From Vermamoeba vermiformis (lineage: Eukaryota), in the NCBI GenBank assembly GCA_045837725.1, contig JBEWZL010000006.1, positions 310,001-347,643 on the forward strand: a stretch of 37,643 nt of DNA. Direction: 5' to 3'. Under the pieces are notes generated by a model. The model saw only the letters and a list, made by a program, of their open reading frames with translations. It did not search any database and was not told the DNA's origin. This document shows, piece after piece, positions 14,666-35,762 of this stretch; within the stretch, counting starts at the first letter, position 1; each line of letters begins with the position of its first letter. Position numbers and translations under genes: made by a program.

Positions 14666-17600
14666 TTATTTCTTTTTGAACAACTTAACACCCTTCTTGT
14701 CGCTCTTTTCTTTCTTTCCTCCGCCAACAGCCGCAGAGGAGTCGATCTTTACGATTTGTTCGGTGAGGTCTGTCAACAATGTCTTGTATGTAGAGCGCAA
14801 TTGTTGGATGAAGAGCTTGCTCTTGTATGCTGAAAGCTCTCCGTTGACCACTAAAGTTCACGTTAGATGAGGCCATCCGCGGTTACCAGGTATTTTGCAA
14901 CTTACTCTTTTGCAACAACCATTCTCTGAACGCAGGACCATGTTCGAACAGAGTAGGGTAGGGAAGTGGAGGTCCATATTGAGGTACATCTGCTTGTTCA
15001 GCGACTTGAACGTTGTAATACACGGGCTTGTCCTTGGCGGTCGGATCTCGAATGACACGCACAACGATAGTGATTTCTACAAGCAGTGATTAGTAAACAG
15101 ACCAAGCGATTTGCTACTTCTATTGTGTTATAATGTCGCGAATACTTACGAATATAATTGGACTTGACACAGTTGGGTACAAACGGTTCACTGCCCTCTT
15201 CTTGGAACACAACGAGAATGATATCGTTACCCAAGTGACGCTTCTTCTGCACTTGTTGTTCACCAGCCTCCATCGGTAGCATTGTTGCAACGTGGTACAT
15301 GAGTTCGTAGTCATTCCACTTTGTGAAGTACGAGTGCGTGCCAGTCGTGTTCTCGCGCACATCGAGACCACCAGCGAAACCTTTCCAGCCCTTCAATTCA
15401 ATCTTGTCTCCGATTAAACCCAAGAACTTTTCATAGTCCTCGCCAGCGTGAGCTAAAGATATCGTTAGAATACCATGTAGTGAGTCTCATGTTGTCGCAA
15501 CTTACGGTTATTAAACATCTCTTCTTCGACTTTTTGTCCTTTTTTACATAATAATACACCAAATTTGAACTTGCGAGTGATCTGAAAGGCCGTTAGCTAA
15601 GGTCTTTAGAGAGCTGCTATGACTTACTCTCATATCCTTCTTTTCGTAGTCCAAAAACAACTGTTGCATGCCTTGACCCATTGTCGGGCGGAACTCCGTT
15701 TCTCTGTATTTGGGGTCAAACATGCCCATAATAGCGTTGTATTTCTCTTTCCAGTTGCTTGCCAGATCTTTGTGAGCAGGCAACGTGGTTCGAACATTGC
15801 CCTGAAAGTAAATGTCAATAAATTACTCCGCAACATTTAAACTGTTCGATAAGGTACTTACATCCTTAGTGCGCAAGAGAAGTCGGAAGATCTTGTTATC
15901 GTTTTCCTCTTCTAACTTCAATGAGGCAATGGTGGCAATATTGGCAATGTCGTAGCCGATAATATTAATGTGTTCTAGAAATAGGTTAGCATGTTCGAAA
16001 ATTATCATCGCACGCGTACCTTGTCCGAAGAAGTGGTCTTGATACCAGTAGCTGTTCTCGCTGATAAACATCGGCCAGGTTCCTTCGGATAAATCGCTCG
16101 GCAAGATGACACCAGTCTCGGCACGCATGCCTAACGGGATGGGGGACAAAACTCCGTAAGTATCGAACAATTTGTAGCTCGAGTTGACGAGATCTTGCAA
16201 CTCCTTCAATTTCTCAGCGGGCAAATCTATATCAACGAGTCTGTTCTTCATGTGGTTTAGCTTTGAAATCAGTTCGCTGATGGCCGCGACAATCTTTTGT
16301 CGAATAGAGAGGATCTTCACATTTGGCACGGCAGCAGCTTCTTCTTGAGTCAGTTCTTTGGGAACAAAGTCGGGTTCAGTATCTTCAAACTCCAAATGCT
16401 AACAGATAGGATTATTACATGTGCCAAAGAGCTTATAGTATTCCATGAACTTACCTTGCCAATCAAGACTACAAGTTTGCTCAGATCCGAAACACGAACA
16501 AAATCTTCTTTTTCTTTGACGCTGTCGAACGCTTTATCGATGGCGATCAATCGTGCTGCTGATTCTTCGAGCTCTCTCACGTATTGTTGCACTTCTGAAA
16601 TTCGCTTTTCCATAGCAATGCCTAATTTAGTAAAATGAGTTGATGTTGCTTGACGATAAGCCGTGCATGCCAATCAGTCACTTGTCATGTTTAATTAAGT
16701 TAATTGAGTGCACTTACGCCTGCTTTCTTGTTCTGGAGTCTCTTCCCAATCCTCGTCAGACATTTCTTCATCAAAAATTGACTTGCTTGCGCCATTGCCA
16801 CTGCGTTCGCGCACGTCCCCTTTGGAATGAGAGCCGCCCAAAAACGTTTGAAAAGCCAAGAACTCTTCAATGCCTGGCAATCGTGTGATGCCTTGCAAAA
16901 AGGCTTCAAGTTTAGCACGTCGCTTCGCGATGTGATTGCTGGTCAAGTTTCCAATCATCTTTTTCTTAGGGAATGCTGGCAACTCGGTGAACACTTTCGA
17001 TAACTATAGTGCATAAAACTCATCAGCTAAATAGATCCAGGATCGAGCATTTTTGACGAAATTCCTGTTCGTTTCGTGTTACTTACACCACTATGTAAGG
17101 CCAAAAATTGCGAAAATCTTCTTAATATGGTCTGAGTCTCTCCATTTGGGTATATAACGGTAATCCAATAGTTCTATGATTTAAAAGTTGAGATCAATAT
17201 AAAGTAAATTTAAATTAATTAACAGCACTTACTGTGAACTCTTTCTCATTCGCTGGTCTAACAGGCACGGTGGAGCTGATAAAAAATTGAAAATGACCTG
17301 TACCACGTGGTGTTCCAGCCATGGGCGAATGGTACTGTAAAGAGCCGGGCTGATCTGATGATGACGGGGACGGCGATGGCTTCTTTATTTCGCTTTGAGA
17401 CTTGCGTCTCTTTGGTTGCTTTTCCTCAGCGTGAATGCGCTTGATTGGCTGCGGGGTTGTTGGAGCAGATGTCGCCAGCTCCTTGCGGGAGGATTTGAGT
17501 GGTTCGTCTGTATCCGTCCTGCGAAAAAGCGTCGTTAGCGACTTTCCGCGAGCTATCTTAATTGGTTGCAAACAAAAAGAATGACAGATTTAAATTCGAG

Positions 17601-24339: not shown

Positions 24340-24509
24340 TTTTCATGTATTTTATCACTAAACAATGCTTTTCTGCACGAGAACGCCGTTGATGGATGTA
24401 TTCTTCCTTAAGATTTTACCCAGATCGCTTTCGAGTATCCCGCGGAAACGTCGCCAGATTTTTTCTGCGGCTTTTGAGATCATAGATACTTTCAACTCTT
24501 CCTAGTGGG

Positions 24510-24593
24510 TGCATTGGTGCTTTGTCTGTCTTCGCTGACTTTATGGGCGCTATTGGATCTGGCACTGGTATCTTGTTGGCTGTGACCACAATC
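24510..24593 (+). pseudogene. Isolated fragment of Sec61 alpha coding sequence (C-terminal TM9-TM10 region)
   Basis: Translates to [28 protein letters not shown], nearly identical to the conserved Sec61alpha segment [28 protein letters not shown]. No other Sec61 sequence is seen on either side. Confidence 0.8.
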
Positions 24594-24804
24594 TCAAAAG
24601 GTGGTACGCTGGTGCTCATCCGATCGGATGAGCGGAACAAACTACAACAAAATGTACCAACAGAAAAGTGGGCAGGATTTCTATTTCTAGAGTATTACCT
24701 CAGCCCAAAGAAAGTCCAAAGAAAAAAGTGTTTGAACGAACAAGCAAAATAAAAACAATTTTTATCGTGCAACTCAGGATGTAATACACTATGCGAGTTA
24801 AATA

Positions 24805-27800
24805 ATGGAACAAACTAGTAGTACAAATAACCTTTCTGAATCGACAATATGGAGTAATACTACGCTGCAATTTTCCAAAGCACAAGTTACTGCCCTGTCG
24901 ATCTCTTCAGACGGAAGAAAAGCGGTTATTGGAGGGTATGTATACGCTTAAAATTGGTAGTATTTTGCTATCAGTTCCTCAAGAAAATGCGAGTTGCCTG
25001 TTAGTTTACTTTCAGACCTACATCCCAAGTTCTCTTCAATTTATTTATTTTGATTTATTTTAGCATAAAATGAAGTAAAAGTATGCTAATATAATTTTGT
25101 AACTAGGAAAAAGTCGTTGTATTTGCTAGACCTTGAAAAATTCAATGATCCACCGCAAACTTTAAAATCACAAAAAACACCTCTTTATGATGTCAACCAA
25201 ATTAAGTGGAGCACTAGAAGTAATGTAATTGCCTCAACGGTACGTATTATTATAATTTTAGGAATAAGTTGGGCCGATCTGAAACACAAAATTCAACTCA
25301 TTCGCAAGTAATGCTTCAAAATTTGGTTGATTATGGCATAATATTTTTCTAAAATTCGGCCAGCTATATCTTCAATTTTTTATTTCAAAATATCGCGCGA
25401 ATCGTTCGATGACATTTCTGTCGAAAAATGTTCTACAAATATTCTAATTATAGTCGCATACGATATCAATCTAAATATTAACTTCATTGGGTTTATTAGA
25501 ATAATCAATTGCTAAATGTTTGGGATATCAACGACGAACGATTTGCCTTGCAAGCACAACTCCAAGCACATAGACGACCCATTCACGATTTGAATTGGAA
25601 CACTTTCGAGCCTAATTTGCTCACTACGGCCTCACTCGATGGCTACATTTTCTTGTGGGACACGCGTGATTTGAAAAAACCCGCGAAAATGAAATATTTC
25701 AAACCTGGAGGTACGTTAAATTAAGCAGCGCTTATTATTTGTTGACAAAATTCCAAAAAATGGAAAAATAATCTATTCTTGAAATTATAGGCACGTGCAG
25801 TCAAGTTAAGTGGAACAGATACCGATCAGTTATTTTGGCTGGCAGTAGCGGAGGTGAAGTGCGCGTGTGGGATATTAGAGTAAGCATCGAGTATAATCGA
25901 TATGACAAGTGTCGCCTTGACAGGAGTGAATTCATTGAGTTGCTCAAAAAAAATAACCGCCGTGTAATTAATGAAATTATTCTTCAGACTGACGCCCCAC
26001 TCGTGAATATTCGAGCAGAGTCAGCGGACATTGTGACATTGGATTGGAGTTACACTGACGAGTCTGAATTGTTGACAGCGAGTCATACTAATAATATCAA
26101 GGTAACATCGACAAGTGAATCGCGATTAAGTGTTCTAACAACGAACTGTAGTTTTGGTGCATTGATCGACCACGCGTACCAACCGGCACATTAATTACTC
26201 CACTCGCCGTGAGCAGAGCAAAGTTCTCGGTATGTTGTTTCCCCTTGTGGTGACTAATGAAGCTAATTTTTGCGGGGCAGCCCTTTGGTTTTGGTGTCGT
26301 TGCGCTTTCGAACAAGAACGTGTCTTCGTCCTTGGATTTGTACAGTTATGCCACACAAGAGGCGCCCAAAGGACCCAACAACATCAGTATCATTCAGAAC
26401 TACGTCTCGGGCGTCACTCCAGCTTCGAGCAAAGCGAGCGTCACGACTTCGTCCGTCGCGTGCTTGTCTCCCGACAGAAACTCTGAGCTGGCGTCGTTTG
26501 ATTGGCGTGTTGTCGAGACAAATGGTAGTAGTAAGTCATACTAACGGGCAATAGACTAACTACCATGGCGCAGGTTACCGCGAGTATCAAATTCTTGCAT
26601 TGTCCAAGAAGGATCACAGCTTGAGGTTCATTCCTATTTCCGCCGAGCAGCAGAAGGTACAGTTCTTGTTCTTACTATTCGTTCAGTAGTATTGACAGAT
26701 GTTAGGCTTGTGGTTACGAGCCCTCAGCAGCGTGTGTAGCCAAGTCAAGTGGCTGCACTACCGACAACAAAGAAAACATGACGAGCAGTACCATGCTGTC
26801 ACTCGACCAAGAGTTCTCGCTGATCAAAAGTCTCCAAGTACCTAATATTTTGATCGAAAAAGTGTCTTCACAGACGCGCTCGTTGATCATCACGGCTCAG
26901 CGCGGCAAATTCTTGGTGCAAGTTAAGATCACGTTCCCTTCGCTCTATCCTATTGAAGCACCTCCCGCTTTTGAAATGTTGTCCAATATCTCACCGCAGT
27001 CCAAAGTCAAGATCAAGGAGGTCAGTAACAAATACCTGAGACATGATAATGTATCGTGTCAATTGACAATTCTTCTGCCCAGGCGCTTGTTGGCACCGCG
27101 CAAGAGTTCGTGGAAAAGAATAGTAACTGCATTGAGCCGTGTCTGCGCAAGTTATCTATTTTGCTCGAACAAGAGGAGTTGAGCAATCAAACCAAACCTG
27201 CTGTACCCACCAGCGTGTCAATGCCCACCATTTCAGTTGCAACTCTTGGAGGAACTTCGGTCGATCCCAATCTGCCGTCGAACATGACGAACTACATGGT
27301 CAAGCCATTCGACACCTTGGCTTCTATCGCACTTACATTTGGCATGAACATCGCTGAGCTCCGTCAACTCAACAAAATCCACCACAGCTCACAACTGCTG
27401 CCCGGTCAAAACTTGGTTGTATACAAGAAAGCACCAACCAAAGGCAAAGTTAGTCCGCGTGGTGACCACACGGGAGAAAAACCCACGCTAGGTGTGAAGC
27501 GATCCATGACAGCTGTGTCTCGCGGTGATAGCCGCAGACAGTTGAAAATGAGTCGAGATGACTCGCACATCAGTGAGGTCAAACACGACCCGACATTGTG
27601 GCAGCACGCAAAACAAAAGTAAGTTTTGTCCTTTGTAGATAGTCCGTGAAGCCTAACAATTGTCGTAGGAGCAATGTTGAAGTGAAGCACAAGTTCAAGC
27701 CTTCGATTGGCAGTGCAGCCGTACACAAGGCTAAAGTGAAGTTCATCGACATGTCCAACTCACAGCAAATCAGCTCAGTATGTTACCCGTGGTTAATACT

Positions 27801-29379
27801 CAACACAGTGCTAATAATATAATTTAGATTACTGGTATTCTCACGATCACCACAACGCAGTTTATTTTCGAGCCAGATCTCGATCAATACGCTGTGTGGG
27901 AGCGCGGCGTGCTGCAGTACACGATATTCAATGAGATGACAAATGTCATCAGCTGCGAGGTCGTTAACTCTGACATGTTTTTCGAGGACGATGACGTAAG
28001 TGTGCACTTGCAATTGTACCTGGAGCGTGTGCTTAATGGGAATATTAGGCCGACAAAGGTACCTGGCGATTCGACGATGAGCACGCCAATGCACTGCTGC
28101 AGGTGTGCATGGATGAGGTGCAGAAGGTTACCAACTCGAAGATCTTGCACTTCTTAACACCACGTGTGAAGTACGTACTCAATAGACCACCTTTTAGTTC
28201 GAGACACTAATTCTTTCAGGGCTCGTGAGCTGAGCAAAGCCATCGAACAATGGATTACACGCACGAAAGAGAAGTCCTTGATGGAGTCCCTCAACTTGGA
28301 CTCACCGTTCCGCAAGTGGACTGGCGTCACTCTGCGCAGGAACAGCGTGGCACCGAGCAAGACTATGATCGGCAAGCGACAGACTGGTGGCAATAAAGAG
28401 AACGCTGTTGTAAACACAGCACAAACAGCCAATGCCAACCAAACTGCGACGCAACCAGCTCCCAAGTTGAAAGAAGAGCCTCGTCGTTTGAGCTTCTTCG
28501 AGAAGTTGACTGGTCGTCGTTCTTCGAAGTCCTCACAGCCCGCTCCAACTCAGACCCAGCCAGCACAAAAGACTTCGATTATTAACTCCTTCTTTGGTGA
28601 GTGGGAGGAAGTAGAGGCTGCGGCAGAAGAGCCTAGTCCTAACGCACCTGTGACAGCTGTCACCAGTCACATGTAAGTCTCGCTGGAGTTCAATCTAGAA
28701 CTAGGACTAATCGCCGACCATACTTAGTACCAAGACTGGCAGTCAAGTGGCTAGCGCGGGTGTCAAAGAAGTGCCGCCAGCAGCTGCCGAAGAAGATGAT
28801 TGGCTACCTATCTTGCTCGATGAATCCAAACTGCTCACAAAAGAATCAGTCAAAGAGCTGTGGGACTGCGTACCCAATCGCTATCGCTACGACTATGACT
28901 TGCGCAAGTTGTTCTCGACTGACACTAACGGCACGAGTTTGATCACGTTCTTCTCAAAAATGCGCAATCAACAGCCTTCATTGATTATCATTCGCGATGA
29001 AAATCAATACATCTTTGGCGGTTTTGCGTCAGCACCGTGGGAGACCAACCCTGTGTTCTACGGCACGGGCGAGTGTTTTGTCTTCGCCTTGAAGCCCGAG
29101 TTCAACGTTTACAAATGGACCAAGTCGAACAACATGTTCATGTACGCCCAACGCGACGGAATTGCCATGGGTGGAGGGTAAGTTTAGCGCGTTTACAATG
29201 CTGGCTCTTTACTGATTGTTCGTAATAGTACTGGAGGTCACTATGGATTCTGGATCGACTCAGAATTCAACTGCGGTACCAGCGAAGTTTCCAAAACATT
29301 TTTGAATCGTCGATTGTCCGCCAGCGAAGAATTTAAATGTAGTATTGTGGAGGTTTGGGGACTTGTAAAGAAGAAATAG
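24805..29379 (+). CDS. WD40-RWD (WDR59/Sea3-like) fused to LysM-GRAM-TLDc (OXR1/NCOA7-like); multi-exon
   Basis: ATG at 24805 (…VTALSISSDGRKAVIGG). WD repeats such as AHRRPIHDLNW...LTTASLDGYIFLWDTRD. RWD LDQEFSLI...VKITFPSLYPIEAPPAF. LysM YMVKPFDTLASIALTFGMNIAELRQLN. GRAM-like ITGILTITTTQFIFEPD...GVLQYTI. TLDc LFSTDTNGTSL...IFGGFAS...FYGTGECFVF...IAMGGG...VEVWGL. Stop TAG at 29377-29379. Confidence 0.85.
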
Positions 29380-29469
29380 ATGTAATGTAAATAAAAGCGT
29401 ATTTATTAGACAGTATTGGTTTGTATTAACATTATTCCATGTGAAATTTACAAATAATTGATAGTGCAC

Positions 29470-31053
29470 TTAACGGAGAGTGTTGCCTTTGCCTCCGAAG
29501 GGAACGAATTTCTTGTCGTCTGCTTTGGGTTCCTCTTTAGCCGCAGTTGTGGTAGTGGTAGTGGTGGGCTTAGGGTGCACAGGAATAGGCTGTTCGAACG
29601 TTAGGTTTGGTTAACAACTGATTGCTACAGTACGTACAGAGTTTCGAGGAGGAGTTGTGGCGAAGTTGATACTAGCTCCTGTTCCGTAAGGTGATGAAGA
29701 CAAGAGACTGGAATTGTTCGGTGACCTGCACAAAATGAGCGGTAAATCAATCTGTGCACGAGAGGCATAACAGAACTAGCCCTTACTTGGACAAGTTATC
29801 GAGAGTAGTTGACGCCTTGTTGATTGGCTTGCCGCTAATTCTGCTGCCACTGCCGCCGAAGGGCACAAACTGATTCTTTTTCTCCTCTTCATAACTGTCC
29901 TCCGAGTCATCGAGTTCGCGCTCCAAGTCGTGCAACTCATCCTTGTTGGCCATCAAATCTTCCAAGTCAGGTTCTTCGTGTTTTGGTGTGGGTTCTTGAT
30001 AGCCGATTGGAGCTGCGAAGTCGACTTGCATGTCTGTTTCGATTATCGACACCGCGTTTAACGGATTAGTCGGGCGCGCTTCGAGAACCTAGTCGTTGAC
30101 TGTTATAATCTTTGCGTAACAAAGTTCTTTTGTGCTCCCTCTTACCGCCAAGTAGTAGTCCTTGTTGTTGTAGCGGAACAAAATGATGTCGCCAATCGTC
30201 AGGGCGGAATATTTACGCAGTGTTTGTTCCAACCTGTAAAAGAGTACTTAAGTGTCATGCTATTGATATTAGGCGTTGTCGTCGACATATTACATACACG
30301 GCTTTGGGGTTTGAAATGTCCAAAAAGTCCACGCTTTGTGGTTGAAATTTTGCGTAGCTGGCGCGAGGTAAAGAGACGCTCGTTACTTTGAGAAAGTCGT
30401 TTGGTTCAATACCAATATTTTGCATCATCTAATGACTAGTATTAATTTTGAAGTTCGTTTTGATCTGGTGTATTTACCCATAGAGGCACGTAGACCTAAG
30501 GTAATCAAATTAGCAAATAATAAATCGAAATAATATTAATTTTAACGTACTCTTCCTTCTTCGGCCGTAAATTCTAATACACCACCTGCGTGACGTCATT
30601 ATTACAAACGTGTAGAAAGTTTTAGTCTTGGTTCACTTACAGTGCGATTTTCTGGCAGGGAATTTTGGGTTTATTAATGAAAATAAGAGGGGATAAACCA
30701 GGTTCAGTTGCGCTGATCAGGAGTCATTTAGTTTTTCATTTAAAAAATAATTAGAATATTTACCAATTCGTCCTAAGGCACTCGGAGGCATAATAACTAC
30801 GAAAAAATATATGTGAGTATATTTAAATTAATTTTTAGGGTTTATCGAGATTAAAAAAACATTTCGAAAACTGGATGCTTACTCTTTCCGCCATCTTCAA
30901 GTTCTGGTTTCATAGCCAGCATTGGTGTAACCCTATATGTTTGAGAAAAGGGCGCAGCAACAGGGTTATTCATTCCGGGGAAATTAATTTGTGGATACTG
31001 GACAAACACGATACCGATCAGCGACGAACTATTGGAAGAATTTTACTTACCAT
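29470..31053 (-). CDS. UFD1: Ubiquitin fusion degradation protein 1 (p97/Cdc48 cofactor); many short exons
   Basis: ATG-only first coding exon, then EDGGK/IIMPPSALGRL, HC/GVLEFTAEEGR, VYVPLW, FLDISNPKAV/LEQTLRKYSALTIGD and VSIIETDMQVDFAAPIGY. Two SHP boxes: FVPFGGSGSRISG and FVPFGGKGNTLR*. Confidence 0.93.
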
Positions 31054-31730: not shown

Positions 31731-34700
31731 ATGGAGCAATTAAAAAGCGCTTTTGGACTAAAAGACATCATCTCTGACGTCTCATCCCGAATCAGGACGA
31801 GCGATCGGCAACAGATAGTAACGCGATTTCTGCAAGACGATATTTGTATCGCCGATCATGCGAGTATCAGTTATATTTTGGAAACACTTCTTGGTTCAAG
31901 TATTGCGATAACCAAAAGTGGAATTACTTCTGTGGTTGTTGATTGCTCTGATCATGACGCGCAACATTACGACGTTTCCGTTAGTATTCAAAGCAACGAT
32001 GTTGCAGCAAGTATGAAGGAGGAAGAATCAATCGGCTCAGAGCAAATTGCGAGGTAATTGAGCTGCTTCGGGGATACAAATATACTAAAACGCTTTAGTG
32101 CCGCGGTTTGCAAATGCATCAAGATGGTAGAATCAATGAAAGGAACAATCACTGGCGGTTTCAACAGAGATTTTGGCACAAGGTTCAGATTTAACATCCA
32201 TGCAGCGAAATCTCCCACTCCGGAATATTGTGCGCGCACATTAACGACGGAAGAACAAGCGAAACACGACAGAATCATGGCGATGTTCAGGACGTCGGGC
32301 AAGAATGGCGAACTTATGGCTGCGACGGACTGGTCGAAGACACCATTGGGACCACTCGAAACTTGGCCTCAGAGTTTGATCACTACCGTTAGTATCTGCT
32401 TGAAGTCAAGATTTCCGATGCTCATTTGGTGGGGACCGCAATTGACAATGATTTACAACGAAGATTACAATTCCATCTTGGGTGCGAAACACCCGAAGTC
32501 CATGGGTCAGATCGGATCGGAATGTTGGCCCGAGGTCTTCGACATCATTGGCCCTATGCTTCACGGAGTCATGCAAGGCAAGGGAGCCACTTGGTCAGAA
32601 GATCAGATGCTCCCTTTGTACAGAAACGGTTTTGTCGAGGAGTGCTACTTCACGTTCTCGTACAGCGCCATTCACGACGAAACCAATGACATTGCAGGCA
32701 TATTCACAGCTGTTTTCGAGACCACAAAGAGCGTCATTGACAAGCGCCGCCTCAACGTGTTGAAAGAGATGGGTCGCGCTACTTCAGCGACTTCAGTACG
32801 ACAGGCCTATCAGATGATTGGTAATGCACTCTCAACGTTGCCGAATTGCTTGCCGTTTTGCGCATTGTACAGCTTAGAGAACGAGAGGTTTGTTCGTCAG
32901 ACCGTGTGCGGACTTCCCGAAGATCACGCGGCTTGCCCAATAGAGCTGAACGAGCGCAGCCTTTGGCCTTACTCTCAAGTTATTGAAAGCCGCAAAGCCG
33001 TTGTCGTGAAGGACGTTGTGAAAAGATTTGGCTCAATCTTTTGTCCTTCATGGCGAGAAAGAATTACGAAGGCGATGATAGTGCCCTTATTCTCGAACAA
33101 GCAGTCAAGCGAAATTATCGGCTTATTCATCACTGGACTCAGTTCGTGGCTGGTGTACAACGAAGAATACACGAGCTTCATTGATTTAATTGGAAATCGT
33201 ATCTGCAACATTGTCAGCACCATTCAGTCGTATGTAGACCAAGTTCACCGAGCGGAAGAGTTGATGCGCATCGACAAAGCCAAGACCCAATTTTTCACCA
33301 ACATCAGTCACGAGTTCCGCACGCCACTCGCGTTGATGTTGGGCCCACTTGCCGATTCATTGGCAGATGATGTTAACCCATTGAATGAAGAGCAGCGCAG
33401 GCGACAAGAAATGATTCAAAGCAATGCTCTGCGGTTACTGAAGCTCGTGAACAACGTGCTGGACTTTGCCAGGATCGAAGCCGGACGCACACAACTCAAT
33501 TTAGTACCCGTCAATATCTCCGAAGTTACCAAGAATCTCAGCGGAACATTTCAGTCGATCATTGCTCACGCAGGACTGGAGTATGTCGTTGATATTCAAC
33601 AAGTTCCGCAGACCTTCCTCGATGTAGATATGTGGGAAAAGATTGTGCTCAATTTATTGTCCAACGCGTTCAAGTTCACTTATCGCGGTAGCATCACTGT
33701 ACGACTGCACCAAGTGGAAACAAACATTATGTTTAGCGTTGCTGACACTGGCGTTGGCATTGCTGAGAGCGAGCAACCGAAGATATTTCAGCGATTTTAC
33801 CGTGCTGAGCATTCACAGGGCCGCAGTTTTGAAGGCTCTGGCATTGGCTTGGCACTCGTTCAAGAACTTGTCAAATTGCACAACGGAACCATCTCTTTCC
33901 AAAGCCAAGTCAACCAAGGAACTACGTTCACAGTGGTCTTGCCAATTACGAAAACCAACGATCGTTCCGACTTCGCTCCCGTTGCCGCTGCACCTGCAAC
34001 TCATACCATCCAAAACAGTCAAGCCGCCCTCAACGAGATCAGTAAATGGGTTGCGCAAGAAGACGAGCGCTTCGTAGTCAAATCTCTCGGACAAAACGCT
34101 CGCGCTCACGTGCTACTCGTCGACGACAATGTAGACATGCGAAACTACCTCCAAAGTATTCTGGCACCACATTACCGTATTTCGATTGCGAAGGATGGCC
34201 TTGAAGCGCTCGAAGTAGTAGAAAAAAACCCACCCGATCTAATACTCAGCGATGTTATGATGCCTCGACTTGATGGCTTCGGCTTAATTAAGCGTCTGCG
34301 TAGTTTGGCAACTACAAATAGCATTCCAATCATTGTTCTCTCTGCGCGTGCTGGCGAAGAGGCTAAAGTTGAAGGCCTTGAAGTTGGTGGGTAGAAGTGC
34401 AGTGCAGGTTTAACCCTAACTAACCACTTAATCTCAGGTGCCGATGATTACTTGGTCAAAACAGCCTTTTCTGAAAAGGAGTTACTAGCTCGCGTCAAGA
34501 CTCACTTTGAGTTGGGTCGATTGCGTTCCCACCTCGAACGAGAGGTTGCCAGAAAAACGGAACAACTGACGCAAGCAAACACTACGTTATCGGAGTTCAT
34601 CGACATGATCTGCCACGAGATACGAAATCCGTTGCACGGCATGGTTGGTAGCTGGCAATTGTTGTCCGAACACTTGGAAAATCTGAACATGAATATTTCC

Positions 34701-35762
34701 GAGCGCACTCACTCTAACTTGGCTATGGAATTATCAGAGATGAAAGACTACCTGACAAACATCAAAGAGTGCACGATGTATCAAGCACGTGTCATGGACG
34801 AGGTCGTACTGTTAGCCAAGCTATTTGCAAACAAGTTCGAGCTCCATCCTAAAGCCTGTCACCTCAGCAAGCTTGTCAACAAAATTCTTCGAAAGGTTGA
34901 AGACAACGCAGAGGCAAAAAGCATCAGATTTGTCCAAAGTCACAATATCAAAGAGGACACGCTTGAAATCGATGCGCGATGCATCGAGCAGATTCTGACT
35001 AGCGTAATTACCTACGTTATGGACACAACGAATAACGACAGTGTGGTGCATGTGTCGCTCTCATCGCGTTTGCAAGACCCTGACTTGGTGGAGCTGAACG
35101 CAAAGATTTTAGCAATGAATTTCATGATGGATGAAAGTGCATTTAATCGATTGTTAACCCTACAACAGCAGTCCTTTGCCAATCGAAGTGTTGGCATTCA
35201 TTACAACAATACTGGATTCAGTCTGGCCATCAGTGAACGACTAGTGAAGGTGATGGGAGGAAAGATTGAGGTCGTAAGTGAGTCAGCGAATGGTTCAACA
35301 CTGTCTGGCCTGGCATTCAACGTCATTGGCAAGTTATCATCACATGAAGATGAAAAGCCACTGCCACAAAGTAATCGAGTGTTCACCAAAAGGGCACTCG
35401 TTGCAGAGGACAACTACGTCAATCAAGTTTTGTGTCGTGCTCTGTTGAAGAAAAAAGGCTATGAGTGTCACATTGCTAGTAATGGAAGAGAGGCACTAGA
35501 AAAATATCAACCAGACTATTATGATTTCATTTTGATGGATATTGCAATGCCAGAAGTCAATGGCCTTGATGTAACAAAGCAAATTCGACAAATTGAAGCA
35601 TCAAATAATGTACAGTATCCAGTGTTTATCATTGGGCTCAGTGCTTATGCACAGGCAGAAAAAGTTGCTGAAGCGTTTGCAGCAGGAATGAATGATTTCA
35701 TCAGCAAGCCAGCTACCCTGGACAAAATTATTGGAATTATTAAGCAGTGGACAAACCATTGA
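31731..35762 (+). CDS. Multi-module hybrid histidine kinase (degenerate HATPase - PAS-like - GAF-like - HisKA - HATPase - REC - HisKA - degenerate HATPase - REC); introns 32054-32098 and 34387-34437
   Basis: DWSKTPLGPLETWPQSL sensor region. H-box FFTNISHEFRTPL, N-box IVLNLLSNAFKFT, G1 DTGVGI, G2 GSGIGL. REC LILSDVMMP. Second H-box FIDMICHEIRNPL and second REC FILMDIAMP...FISKP. Both introns restore the frame. Confidence 0.92.

Follow-up and report, generated by a model that had tools for sequence, protein, structure and literature searches.

A gene encoding a protein of two unexpected halves was identified in Vermamoeba vermiformis, on the forward strand of a 37,643-nucleotide (nt) stretch of contig JBEWZL010000006.1 (assembly GCA_045837725.1, contig positions 310,001 to 347,643; hereafter the window). 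The N-terminal half of the protein consists of a WD40 propeller and an RWD domain of the kind found in WDR59/Sea3, a subunit of the GATOR2/SEACAT complex. The C-terminal half consists of a LysM domain, a predicted PH/GRAM-like domain and a TLDc domain of the OXR1/NCOA7 type. The region 24805-29379 is one real, conserved gene, and its status as a true fusion gene is practically certain. That its N-half is a WDR59 paralogue and its C-half is of OXR1 type is very probable. The protein is a candidate adaptor between GATOR1 and the V-ATPase. An earlier reading of the window, made without database searches (the sequence-only reading), had drawn attention to this gene, and its claims are considered below with the results that bear on them.

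The coding region begins with the ATG at 24805, which is the first methionine codon downstream of an in-frame TAA, and ends with the TAG at 29377-29379. Sixteen exons (Table 1) were joined at the first attempt into an open coding sequence of 3387 nt that specifies 1128 amino acids (aa). All 15 introns have GT..AG borders and range from 49 to 260 nt; 13 of them measure 49-108 nt, and most of these contain a CTAAC-like branch site. Residues 12-1128 of the model are collinear with an independent protein of 1286 aa (P0002) in a single alignment with 40% identity, and by this sequence comparison the agreement over the whole model is far beyond chance. A second protein, the 533-aa fragment P0001, shows 89.7% identity to residues 206-737 of the model and crosses seven exon joins without interruption, so its source must be a spliced message or a close relative with few introns. 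P0001 follows the spliced exons 5-12, and its last two residues correspond to a read into the start of intron 12 (GTAAGT, 27996-28001), as if the record came from a message that retained this intron or was incompletely spliced. Introns 1 and 2 (171 and 260 nt, within 24936-25499) are longer and more AT-rich than the other 13, and the GC content is 0.35 in the interval 25001-26000 compared with 0.47-0.50 over 26001-29000 of the same gene.

The two halves meet within a single exon. The peptides FVEKNSNCIEPCLRKL and YMVKPFDTLASIA, quoted in the sequence-only reading for the end of the RWD and for the LysM, both lie in the stop-free frame 27050-27622, inside the exon 27083-27618. Since the RWD end and the LysM share one stop-free exon, the junction is independent of any splice, as had been claimed. 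This exon is 88% identical to P0001 over 100% of its length and 49% identical to P0002 over 65%. Pfam searches with single exon pieces returned WD40 at 25500-25724, together with other propeller families, and a weak RWD match at 26706-27182 (E 0.02; 15.5 bits vs a cut-off of 22.8). LysM (PF01476) was found at residues 82-124 of the frame 27050-27622 (E 6.9e-10; 39.2 bits, cut-off 20.9), and TLDc (PF07534; cut-off 24.5) was found at 28711-29181 (E 3.8e-36; 125 bits) and at 29188-29379 (E 7e-9; 36.3 bits). The proposed succession of WD40, RWD, LysM and TLDc in one gene is borne out by the 16-exon model and by the Pfam and PDB matches of its own exons. An AlphaFold2 model was built for a relative of 931 aa (P0006) from a 16-row family alignment, with a mean predicted local distance difference test score (pLDDT) of 61.7. 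Its confident blocks are the RWD (residues 181-292), the LysM (336-390), a domain of seven strands and a helix (536-667) and the TLDc (755-931). The linkers between all domains, including the counterpart of the pre-TLDc linker, are disordered in this model (pLDDT <50).

Several lines of evidence relate the N-half to WDR59. When P0002 was compared with all PDB sequences, human WDR59 was the best match (2.5e-58, in two stretches covering the propeller and the RWD), followed by yeast Sea3/Mtc5 (6.3e-40, including the RWD), WDR24 (7.9e-21) and WDR5 (2e-14). Among the exons of the window itself, exon 3 has residues 82-142 of human WDR59 as its top PDB match (E 1.9e-18), with RBBP4 second (7.4e-14). 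Exon 9 matches residues 390-458 of the WDR59 RWD (E 8.6e-4), and a search of the PDB up to E 1 gave just one further match, at chance level (0.14). Pfam RWD scores above its cut-off in another relative, P0005 (24.9 bits), and below it on the window. The RWD of the fusion protein bears the motifs FPxxYP..APPxF and NC[IL]ExCLRKL. The first of these and the NC[IL]ExCL core of the second are common to the fusion, human WDR59 and yeast Sea3 in the PDB alignments of P0002, and all 16 family rows have the N and the C of the NC motif. In the P0006 model, the RWD is predicted as a confident alpha/beta fold, which Foldseek matched to Sea3 in the SEACIT wing (8ae6_Q, 2e-9). The fusion propellers show 28-40% identity to named WDR59s by blastp. 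Fifteen non-fusion matches of the HMMER search described below were looked up, and six were counted as WDR59: proteins so named in Planoprotostelium, Balamuthia, a scorpion, a hemichordate and a coral, and the Arcella protein A0A6B2KXK2 ('RWD domain-containing protein'). The rest had uninformative names or none.

The phylogeny of the propeller-RWD part was reconstructed by a careful IQ-TREE run (38 rows, 487 columns) that followed quick trees. The root was placed at Acrasis, which was the analyst's choice, with no WDR24/MIOS outgroup. Near-copies and isoforms (P0001, P0030, P0061, P0062, P0069, P0118, P0154, P0155, P0158-P0160, P0162 and P0163) were left out, as were matches whose propeller match was shorter than 150 aa or that had no RWD match. 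All nine fusion N-halves fell into one clade (ultrafast bootstrap 100, SH-like approximate likelihood ratio test (SH-aLRT) 99). This clade, the canonical WDR59s of Mastigamoeba, Balamuthia, Planoprotostelium and Arcella, and three further sequences lie together on the same side of a branch supported at 98/96. When rooted on Acrasis, this sequence-based tree makes the fusion N-half an amoebozoan WDR59 paralogue. The sequence-only reading had called the N-half WDR59/Sea3-type and had named a grouping outside WDR59 as the result that would count against this; the N-half falls inside amoebozoan WDR59, and the PDB matches of P0002 and of the window exons agree. The propeller and the RWD are kept as a unit in all nine full-length or nearly full-length fusions of the tree. 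In Arcella intermedia, the fusion (P0016) occurs beside a canonical protein (P0069/P0166) with WD40, RWD and a C-terminal zinc_ribbon_16, so in this species the fusion is an extra copy and not a replacement. A canonical WDR59 of 1400 aa with a zf-RING_16 (P0070, from a contig of up to 149 kb) is sister to the whole fusion clade (84/82) and may be the closest canonical relative of the fusion N-half.

The fusion is also found outside V. vermiformis. P0001 was used as the query of an exhaustive HMMER search over 1.84 billion representatives, which returned 3209 matches at E <=0.001; the best 150 were sorted by Pfam and by blastp comparison with the five domains of the model. Thirteen of these 150 carry a WDR59-type RWD and a LysM in one chain, most of them together with the PH-like block and the TLDc. 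Another 35 contain the RWD, with or without WD40, and lack the OXR1 part; the remaining 102 matched in the LysM only and are mostly multi-LysM proteins. Among longer proteins, P0001 and P0002 were the two matches of the junction exon, and a search with the junction region of P0002 returned a third full-length relative, P0003 (1423 aa). P0006 and P0007 (1379 aa), whose contigs measure up to 122 kb and up to 76 kb, respectively, are single called genes across the junction. As each is one called gene on a long contig, the fusion is present in genomes and not in transcripts alone. The fusion clusters that were looked up (n=14) comprise four with species names, nine environmental ones and one EukProt entry. 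The named carriers, all known from transcript assemblies, are Nolandella sp. AFSM9, Arcella intermedia, Rhizamoeba saxonica and Amoeba proteus, and all four belong to the Elardia (Amoebozoa, Tubulinea), a distribution that points to a lobose amoeba as the bearer of the window gene. Transcripts across the junction, which the sequence-only reading had put forward as a check, thus exist in relatives, where single genomic open reading frames also span RWD and LysM. The TLDc end is the best conserved part among the fusion relatives (46-63% identity). The Arcella intermedia fusion is the UniRef entry A0A6B2KWW9, with the automatic name 'Oxidation resistance protein 1'. The sequence-only reading knew of no described protein with this architecture. 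This holds for the literature insofar as full-text searching, with most subscription journals outside its coverage, found no description of a WDR59-TLDc/OXR1 fusion; the sequences themselves are already public, in Tubulinea amoebae, under automatic names.

The two parts of Sea3 have been described in the yeast SEA complex, and the following points are taken from the available portion of that report (PMC9646525). The N-terminal part (propeller and RWD, 'Sea3 SIP') is assigned to the SEACIT wing, with the propeller on the Sea1-Npr2 junction and the RWD on the C-lobe of Npr3. A flexible, invisible connector joins it to the SAP (invasion motif, solenoid and RING), which builds the SEACAT core. Without the Sea3 SIP, a stable SEACIT complex could not be purified. 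Removal of the RING from Sea2, Sea3 or Sea4 dissociated the complex, and deletion of the SEACAT portion of Sea3 alone gave a SEACAT-like phenotype. A relationship of the RWD to E2 enzymes is noted, and a role connected with ubiquitin was left open. In the human GATOR2 maps, the propeller and RWD of WDR59 are not visible, according to the accessible text of PMC12507694. A preprint, PMC13370336, yielded no relevant statement on the propeller, the RWD or the V-ATPase.

The second of these parts has been lost from the fusion. Residues 501-1128 of the model showed no similarity to the C-termini of 27 canonical WDR59s (best E 0.47); as a control, the canonical C-termini matched each other in 605 of 702 ordered pairs. 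The same residues contain no CxxC motif, and no canonical WDR59 C-terminus is encoded elsewhere in the window. The C-terminal RING/zinc ribbon of WDR59/Sea3 is the element that pairs with MIOS/Sea4; the Pfam families zf-RING_16 and zinc_ribbon_16 were found on canonical matches and on no fusion protein. The alpha-solenoid and zinc finger, which the sequence-only reading had reported as missing, are therefore absent. The cage-building piece (the blade for Sec13, the alpha-solenoid and the RING) is gone from the fusion, and only the WD40 propeller and the RWD, i.e., exactly the Sea3 SIP of the yeast SEA complex, are retained. At the position of the Sea3 connector, the SAP is replaced by an OXR1/NCOA7-type unit composed of LysM, PH/GRAM-like domain, acidic patch and TLDc. 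Because the retained half, in the yeast assignment cited above, is a module of the GATOR1/SEACIT wing, where it sits on Sea1/Iml1, Npr2 and Npr3, and not of the GATOR2 cage, the link suggested by the fusion would be one of GATOR1 to the V-ATPase.

The OXR1 and NCOA7 long isoforms have the architecture LysM-GRAM-TLDc, and GRAM is counted among the PH-like folds. In the PDB, exon 15 of the window matches the TLDc of zebrafish Oxr2 (1.4e-21), NCOA7B (1.5e-20), mEAK-7 (1.2e-14) and yeast Oxr1p (3.7e-6), and the last exon (29229-29379) extends the TLDc match begun in exon 15. The acidic patch and the LPIL before the TLDc align to 'EEEEEGLPIL' of NCOA7B. The first two matches of exon 15 uphold the OXR1/NCOA7 type that had been assigned to the C-half. 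The LysM and the TLDc of the proposed LysM-GRAM-TLDc order were both recovered, and the GRAM domain stands only as the PH-like fold of the P0006 model. Pfam GRAM was not found when pieces of the window and entire relatives were searched, nor with E relaxed to 10 in a 143-aa segment of P0002. The middle block (27697-28293) is conserved in all full-length relatives. Its counterpart in P0006, the seven-strand and helix domain, has a pLDDT of ~88, and Foldseek matched it to PH domains (E ~2e-4). The middle domain would thus be GRAM-like at fold level only, as a predicted PH-like fold. For P0008, the ESM Atlas contained no usable match.

The TLDc domain has retained residues that matter for V-ATPase binding in a related protein. 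The mutations G815A, G845A and G896A of mouse Ncoa7 abolished the V-ATPase pull-down, whereas S817A, L926A and E938A lowered it, as given in the available part of PMC8608904. All six residues (G815, S817, G845, G896, L926 and E938) are identical in the window by a manual count on alignments, with 4ACJ taken to start at G635 and the numbering taken from PMC8608904. Foldseek of the P0006 TLDc returned 4acj (1.5e-16; TM score 0.87 on the target), as well as V-ATPase-bound NCOA7B (7uzg_T), mEAK-7 and Oxr1-bound V1 (7fde_P).

The fusion can be compared with four known types of protein. WDR59 of animals and Sea3 (= Mtc5) of yeast, the corresponding subunits of GATOR2 and SEACAT, share with it an N-terminal WD40 propeller followed by an RWD. 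They are the top PDB match of its N-half, and the fusion groups with amoebozoan WDR59 in the tree. Unlike WDR59/Sea3, the fusion has no Sec13 domain-invasion blade, alpha-solenoid or C-terminal RING/zinc ribbon and contains LysM-PH-TLDc instead; with these three elements absent, the known routes into the GATOR2 cage are missing. The long isoforms of OXR1/NCOA7 resemble the fusion in their LysM and C-terminal TLDc domains and in the acidic patch before the TLDc (NCOA7B), but the fusion has ~500 extra N-terminal residues of WDR59 origin, and in the place of the GRAM it has a predicted PH-like domain on which Pfam GRAM is undetectable. mEAK-7 (MTOR-associated protein MEAK7) is a TLDc protein that has been solved bound to V1 (7u8o, 7u4t and 7une). 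It is tied to mTOR by its PDB entry name and is a precedent for a TLDc-V-ATPase-TOR connection. However, it has no WDR59 part, and its TLDc match is weaker (1.2e-14 vs 1.4e-21 for Oxr2). The link of mEAK-7 to mTOR is not known to run through GATOR1. Yeast Oxr1p and Rtc5p share the TLDc fold (Foldseek of the P0006 model, 7fde_P at 7.2e-11 and 9nn1_R at 2.1e-5) but lack the LysM, the PH domain and the WDR59 part, and their sequence similarity to the fusion is low (3.7e-6 for Oxr1p). The effects of these TLDc proteins on the V-ATPase are given as disassembly, or as assembly and localisation, in the accessible parts of PMC8804929, PMC11094088 and PMC11066047.

GATOR1 is a GTPase-activating protein (GAP) for the Rag GTPases and acts upstream of TORC1. 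The fusion protein could be pictured as a two-handed adaptor, in which the WDR59-derived hand would dock on GATOR1, as the Sea3 SIP does, and the TLDc hand would dock on the V1 sector of the V-ATPase, as OXR1, NCOA7 and mEAK-7 do. GATOR1 would then be held beside the proton pump on the membranes of lysosomes, phagosomes or contractile vacuoles. Pump state and nutrient signalling would be coupled, either with the pump informing GATOR1 or with GATOR1 steering the assembly or disassembly of the pump. By analogy with its relatives, the TLDc domain probably binds the V-ATPase. Binding of the N-half to GATOR1, judged from the Sea3 precedent, has a little less than an even chance, and the presence of both bindings in one GATOR1-V-ATPase adaptor is put forward tentatively.

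Several observations weigh against an adaptor of this kind. The end branches of six of the nine fusion N-halves are 1.3-2.2 long, and with the 28-40% identity added to this, drift of the GATOR1 surface may have occurred. No WDR24/MIOS sequence served as an outgroup of the tree, and its root at Acrasis was chosen. Pfam RWD on the window itself is under its cut-off, and the PH/GRAM-like fold is predicted from a relative's model that has a 16-row alignment behind it and a mean pLDDT of 61.7. The TLDc domains of two proteins, Tbc1d24 and Tldc1, failed in the V-ATPase pull-down when purified, as stated in the available part of PMC8608904, so a TLDc domain alone is no guarantee of V-ATPase binding.

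Part of this evidence would suit a protein that is an OXR1-type regulator of the V-ATPase with a borrowed propeller-RWD, which makes no contact with GATOR1 and has nothing to do with TORC1. The WDR59 half would in that case, for instance, bind another partner, mediate self-association or, through the E2-like fold of its RWD, play a part related to ubiquitin. The long branches of the fusion N-halves and their low identity to canonical propellers, the better conservation of the TLDc end, the UniRef name of the Arcella fusion and the E2 relationship of the RWD, with its ubiquitin-related role left open in the portion of PMC9646525 available, all favour such a scaffold. It is nevertheless rather unlikely: the RWD signature motifs are retained across the fusion, human WDR59 and yeast Sea3, the N and C of the NC motif do not vary, and the propeller and RWD that stay together in nine fusions are the unit that contacts SEACIT.

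The WDR59 half, deprived of its cage, could also act as a decoy that competes with canonical WDR59 for GATOR1 and frees it from GATOR2 control, with the OXR1 part setting location or stability. A canonical WDR59 coexists in Arcella, the solenoid and RING are missing, and deletion of the SEACAT portion of Sea3 gives a SEACAT-like phenotype in yeast (PMC9646525, available portion), all of which would fit. A decoy, however, would not require the LysM-PH-TLDc unit to be conserved in full and all six V-ATPase-relevant residues to be kept. This possibility is quite improbable, and it overlaps the adaptor proposal rather than excluding it. It is still more improbable that the fusion is the sole WDR59 of the organism and enters GATOR2 through contacts other than RING and solenoid. 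No canonical WDR59 is encoded within the window, but Arcella intermedia carries a canonical WDR59 beside the fusion, the fusions form a clade of their own apart from canonical amoebozoan sequences, and the available text of PMC9646525 reports that RING removal from Sea2, Sea3 or Sea4 dissociates the complex. An artefact, be it a truncated WDR59 and an OXR1 neighbour misread as one gene or an assembly chimera, is scarcely credible: transcript support does come from the RNA of other species, but no stop lies between RWD and LysM inside one exon, the same junction occurs in the de novo transcripts of four named species, in environmental sequences and in single genomic open reading frames, and the fusion N-halves form one clade (100/99).

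The adaptor proposal bears on a wider matter. The V-ATPase is required for amino-acid sensing, and its connection with the Rag-GATOR-TORC1 system is a long-standing mechanistic question that the fusion makes directly testable. TLDc proteins are established V-ATPase binders and the N-terminal module of WDR59/Sea3 holds GATOR1; the conserved fusion of the two suggests a GATOR1-TLDc-V-ATPase axis, a hypothesis open to direct tests in amoebae and, where the proteins are unfused, in yeast or human cells. By analogy, the fusion might be a Rosetta stone, in which case unfused OXR1/NCOA7-type TLDc proteins and the WDR59 propeller-RWD (or GATOR1) would cooperate on the lysosome across eukaryotes, but this extension is a long shot. 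If it were true, TLDc proteins would be the missing physical link from V-ATPase state to the GAP of the Rag GTPases, or from nutrient state to pump assembly, and lobose amoebae would have hard-wired the pair into one chain after a WDR59 duplication. The fusion also indicates that evolution can separate the 'SEACIT portion' of WDR59, as a module, from the GATOR2 cage. If there is no link between GATOR1 and the pump, the gene remains a clean example, from Tubulinea, of a domain swap by which a paralogue was neofunctionalised.

Table 1. Coordinates of the fusion gene and of its domains in the window
Feature	Position	Strand	Remarks
Whole coding region	24805..29379	+	16 exons, 1128 aa
Exons 1-8	24805-24935, 25107-25239, 25500-25710, 25791-25879, 25988-26101, 26152-26229, 26281-26524, 26574-26656	+	
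Exons 9-16	26706-27020, 27083-27618, 27669-27777, 27828-27995, 28049-28170, 28220-28672, 28728-29177, 29229-29379	+	
WDR59-type WD40 beta-propeller	24805..26656	+	exons 1-8, ~aa 1-361; Pfam and PDB match
RWD domain	26799..27172	+	~aa 393-496; split by intron 27021-27082
Junction exon	27083..27618	+	last RWD helices, ~35-aa linker, LysM, start of basic linker; no stop
LysM domain	27293..27421	+	Pfam PF01476
PH/GRAM-like domain with long C-terminal helix	27697..28293	+	exons 11-13 and start of 14; borders approximate
Low-complexity linker, acidic patch (AAAEEDDWLPIL) at its end right before TLDc	28294..28815	+	
TLDc domain	28816..29376	+	exons 15 and 16, intron 29178-29228; Pfam, PDB
AATAAA hexamer	29390..29395	+	11 nt past stop codon; possible polyadenylation signal, read from sequence

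Several other genes were recognized in the window. A UFD1 (ubiquitin fusion degradation protein) gene with several small exons lies at ~29470-30430 on the reverse strand, tail to tail with the fusion gene and ~90 nt beyond its stop codon. On the other side of the fusion gene, the frame 24486-24752 was considered as the end of a Sec61-type gene and was dropped, as it matched no Pfam family. A large multi-exon gene on the reverse strand contains a Rap-GAP domain at ~14998-16398 (Pfam E 2.5e-38), and the Rap-GAP dimerisation family is weakly matched upstream of it. Its identification as TSC2 was rejected, since the PDB match to Rap1GAP (2.1e-26) is far better than that to tuberin (9e-9). A SpoU-type RNA 2'-O-methyltransferase with substrate-binding and methylase domains is encoded at 3-575 on the forward strand and runs off the start of the window. 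A long intron-free hybrid histidine kinase (GAF, HisKA, HATPase_c and receiver) is encoded at 32058-34394 on the forward strand, and a second HisKA-receiver frame follows directly at 34395-35762 on the same strand. Among the 120 matches listed for the first kinase, one has 98% identity and the next three have 52-57%. The remaining listed matches are of bacterial type (myxobacteria, cyanobacteria and Ktedonobacteria) with 39-47% identity, and by these similarities the kinase may be of bacterial origin.

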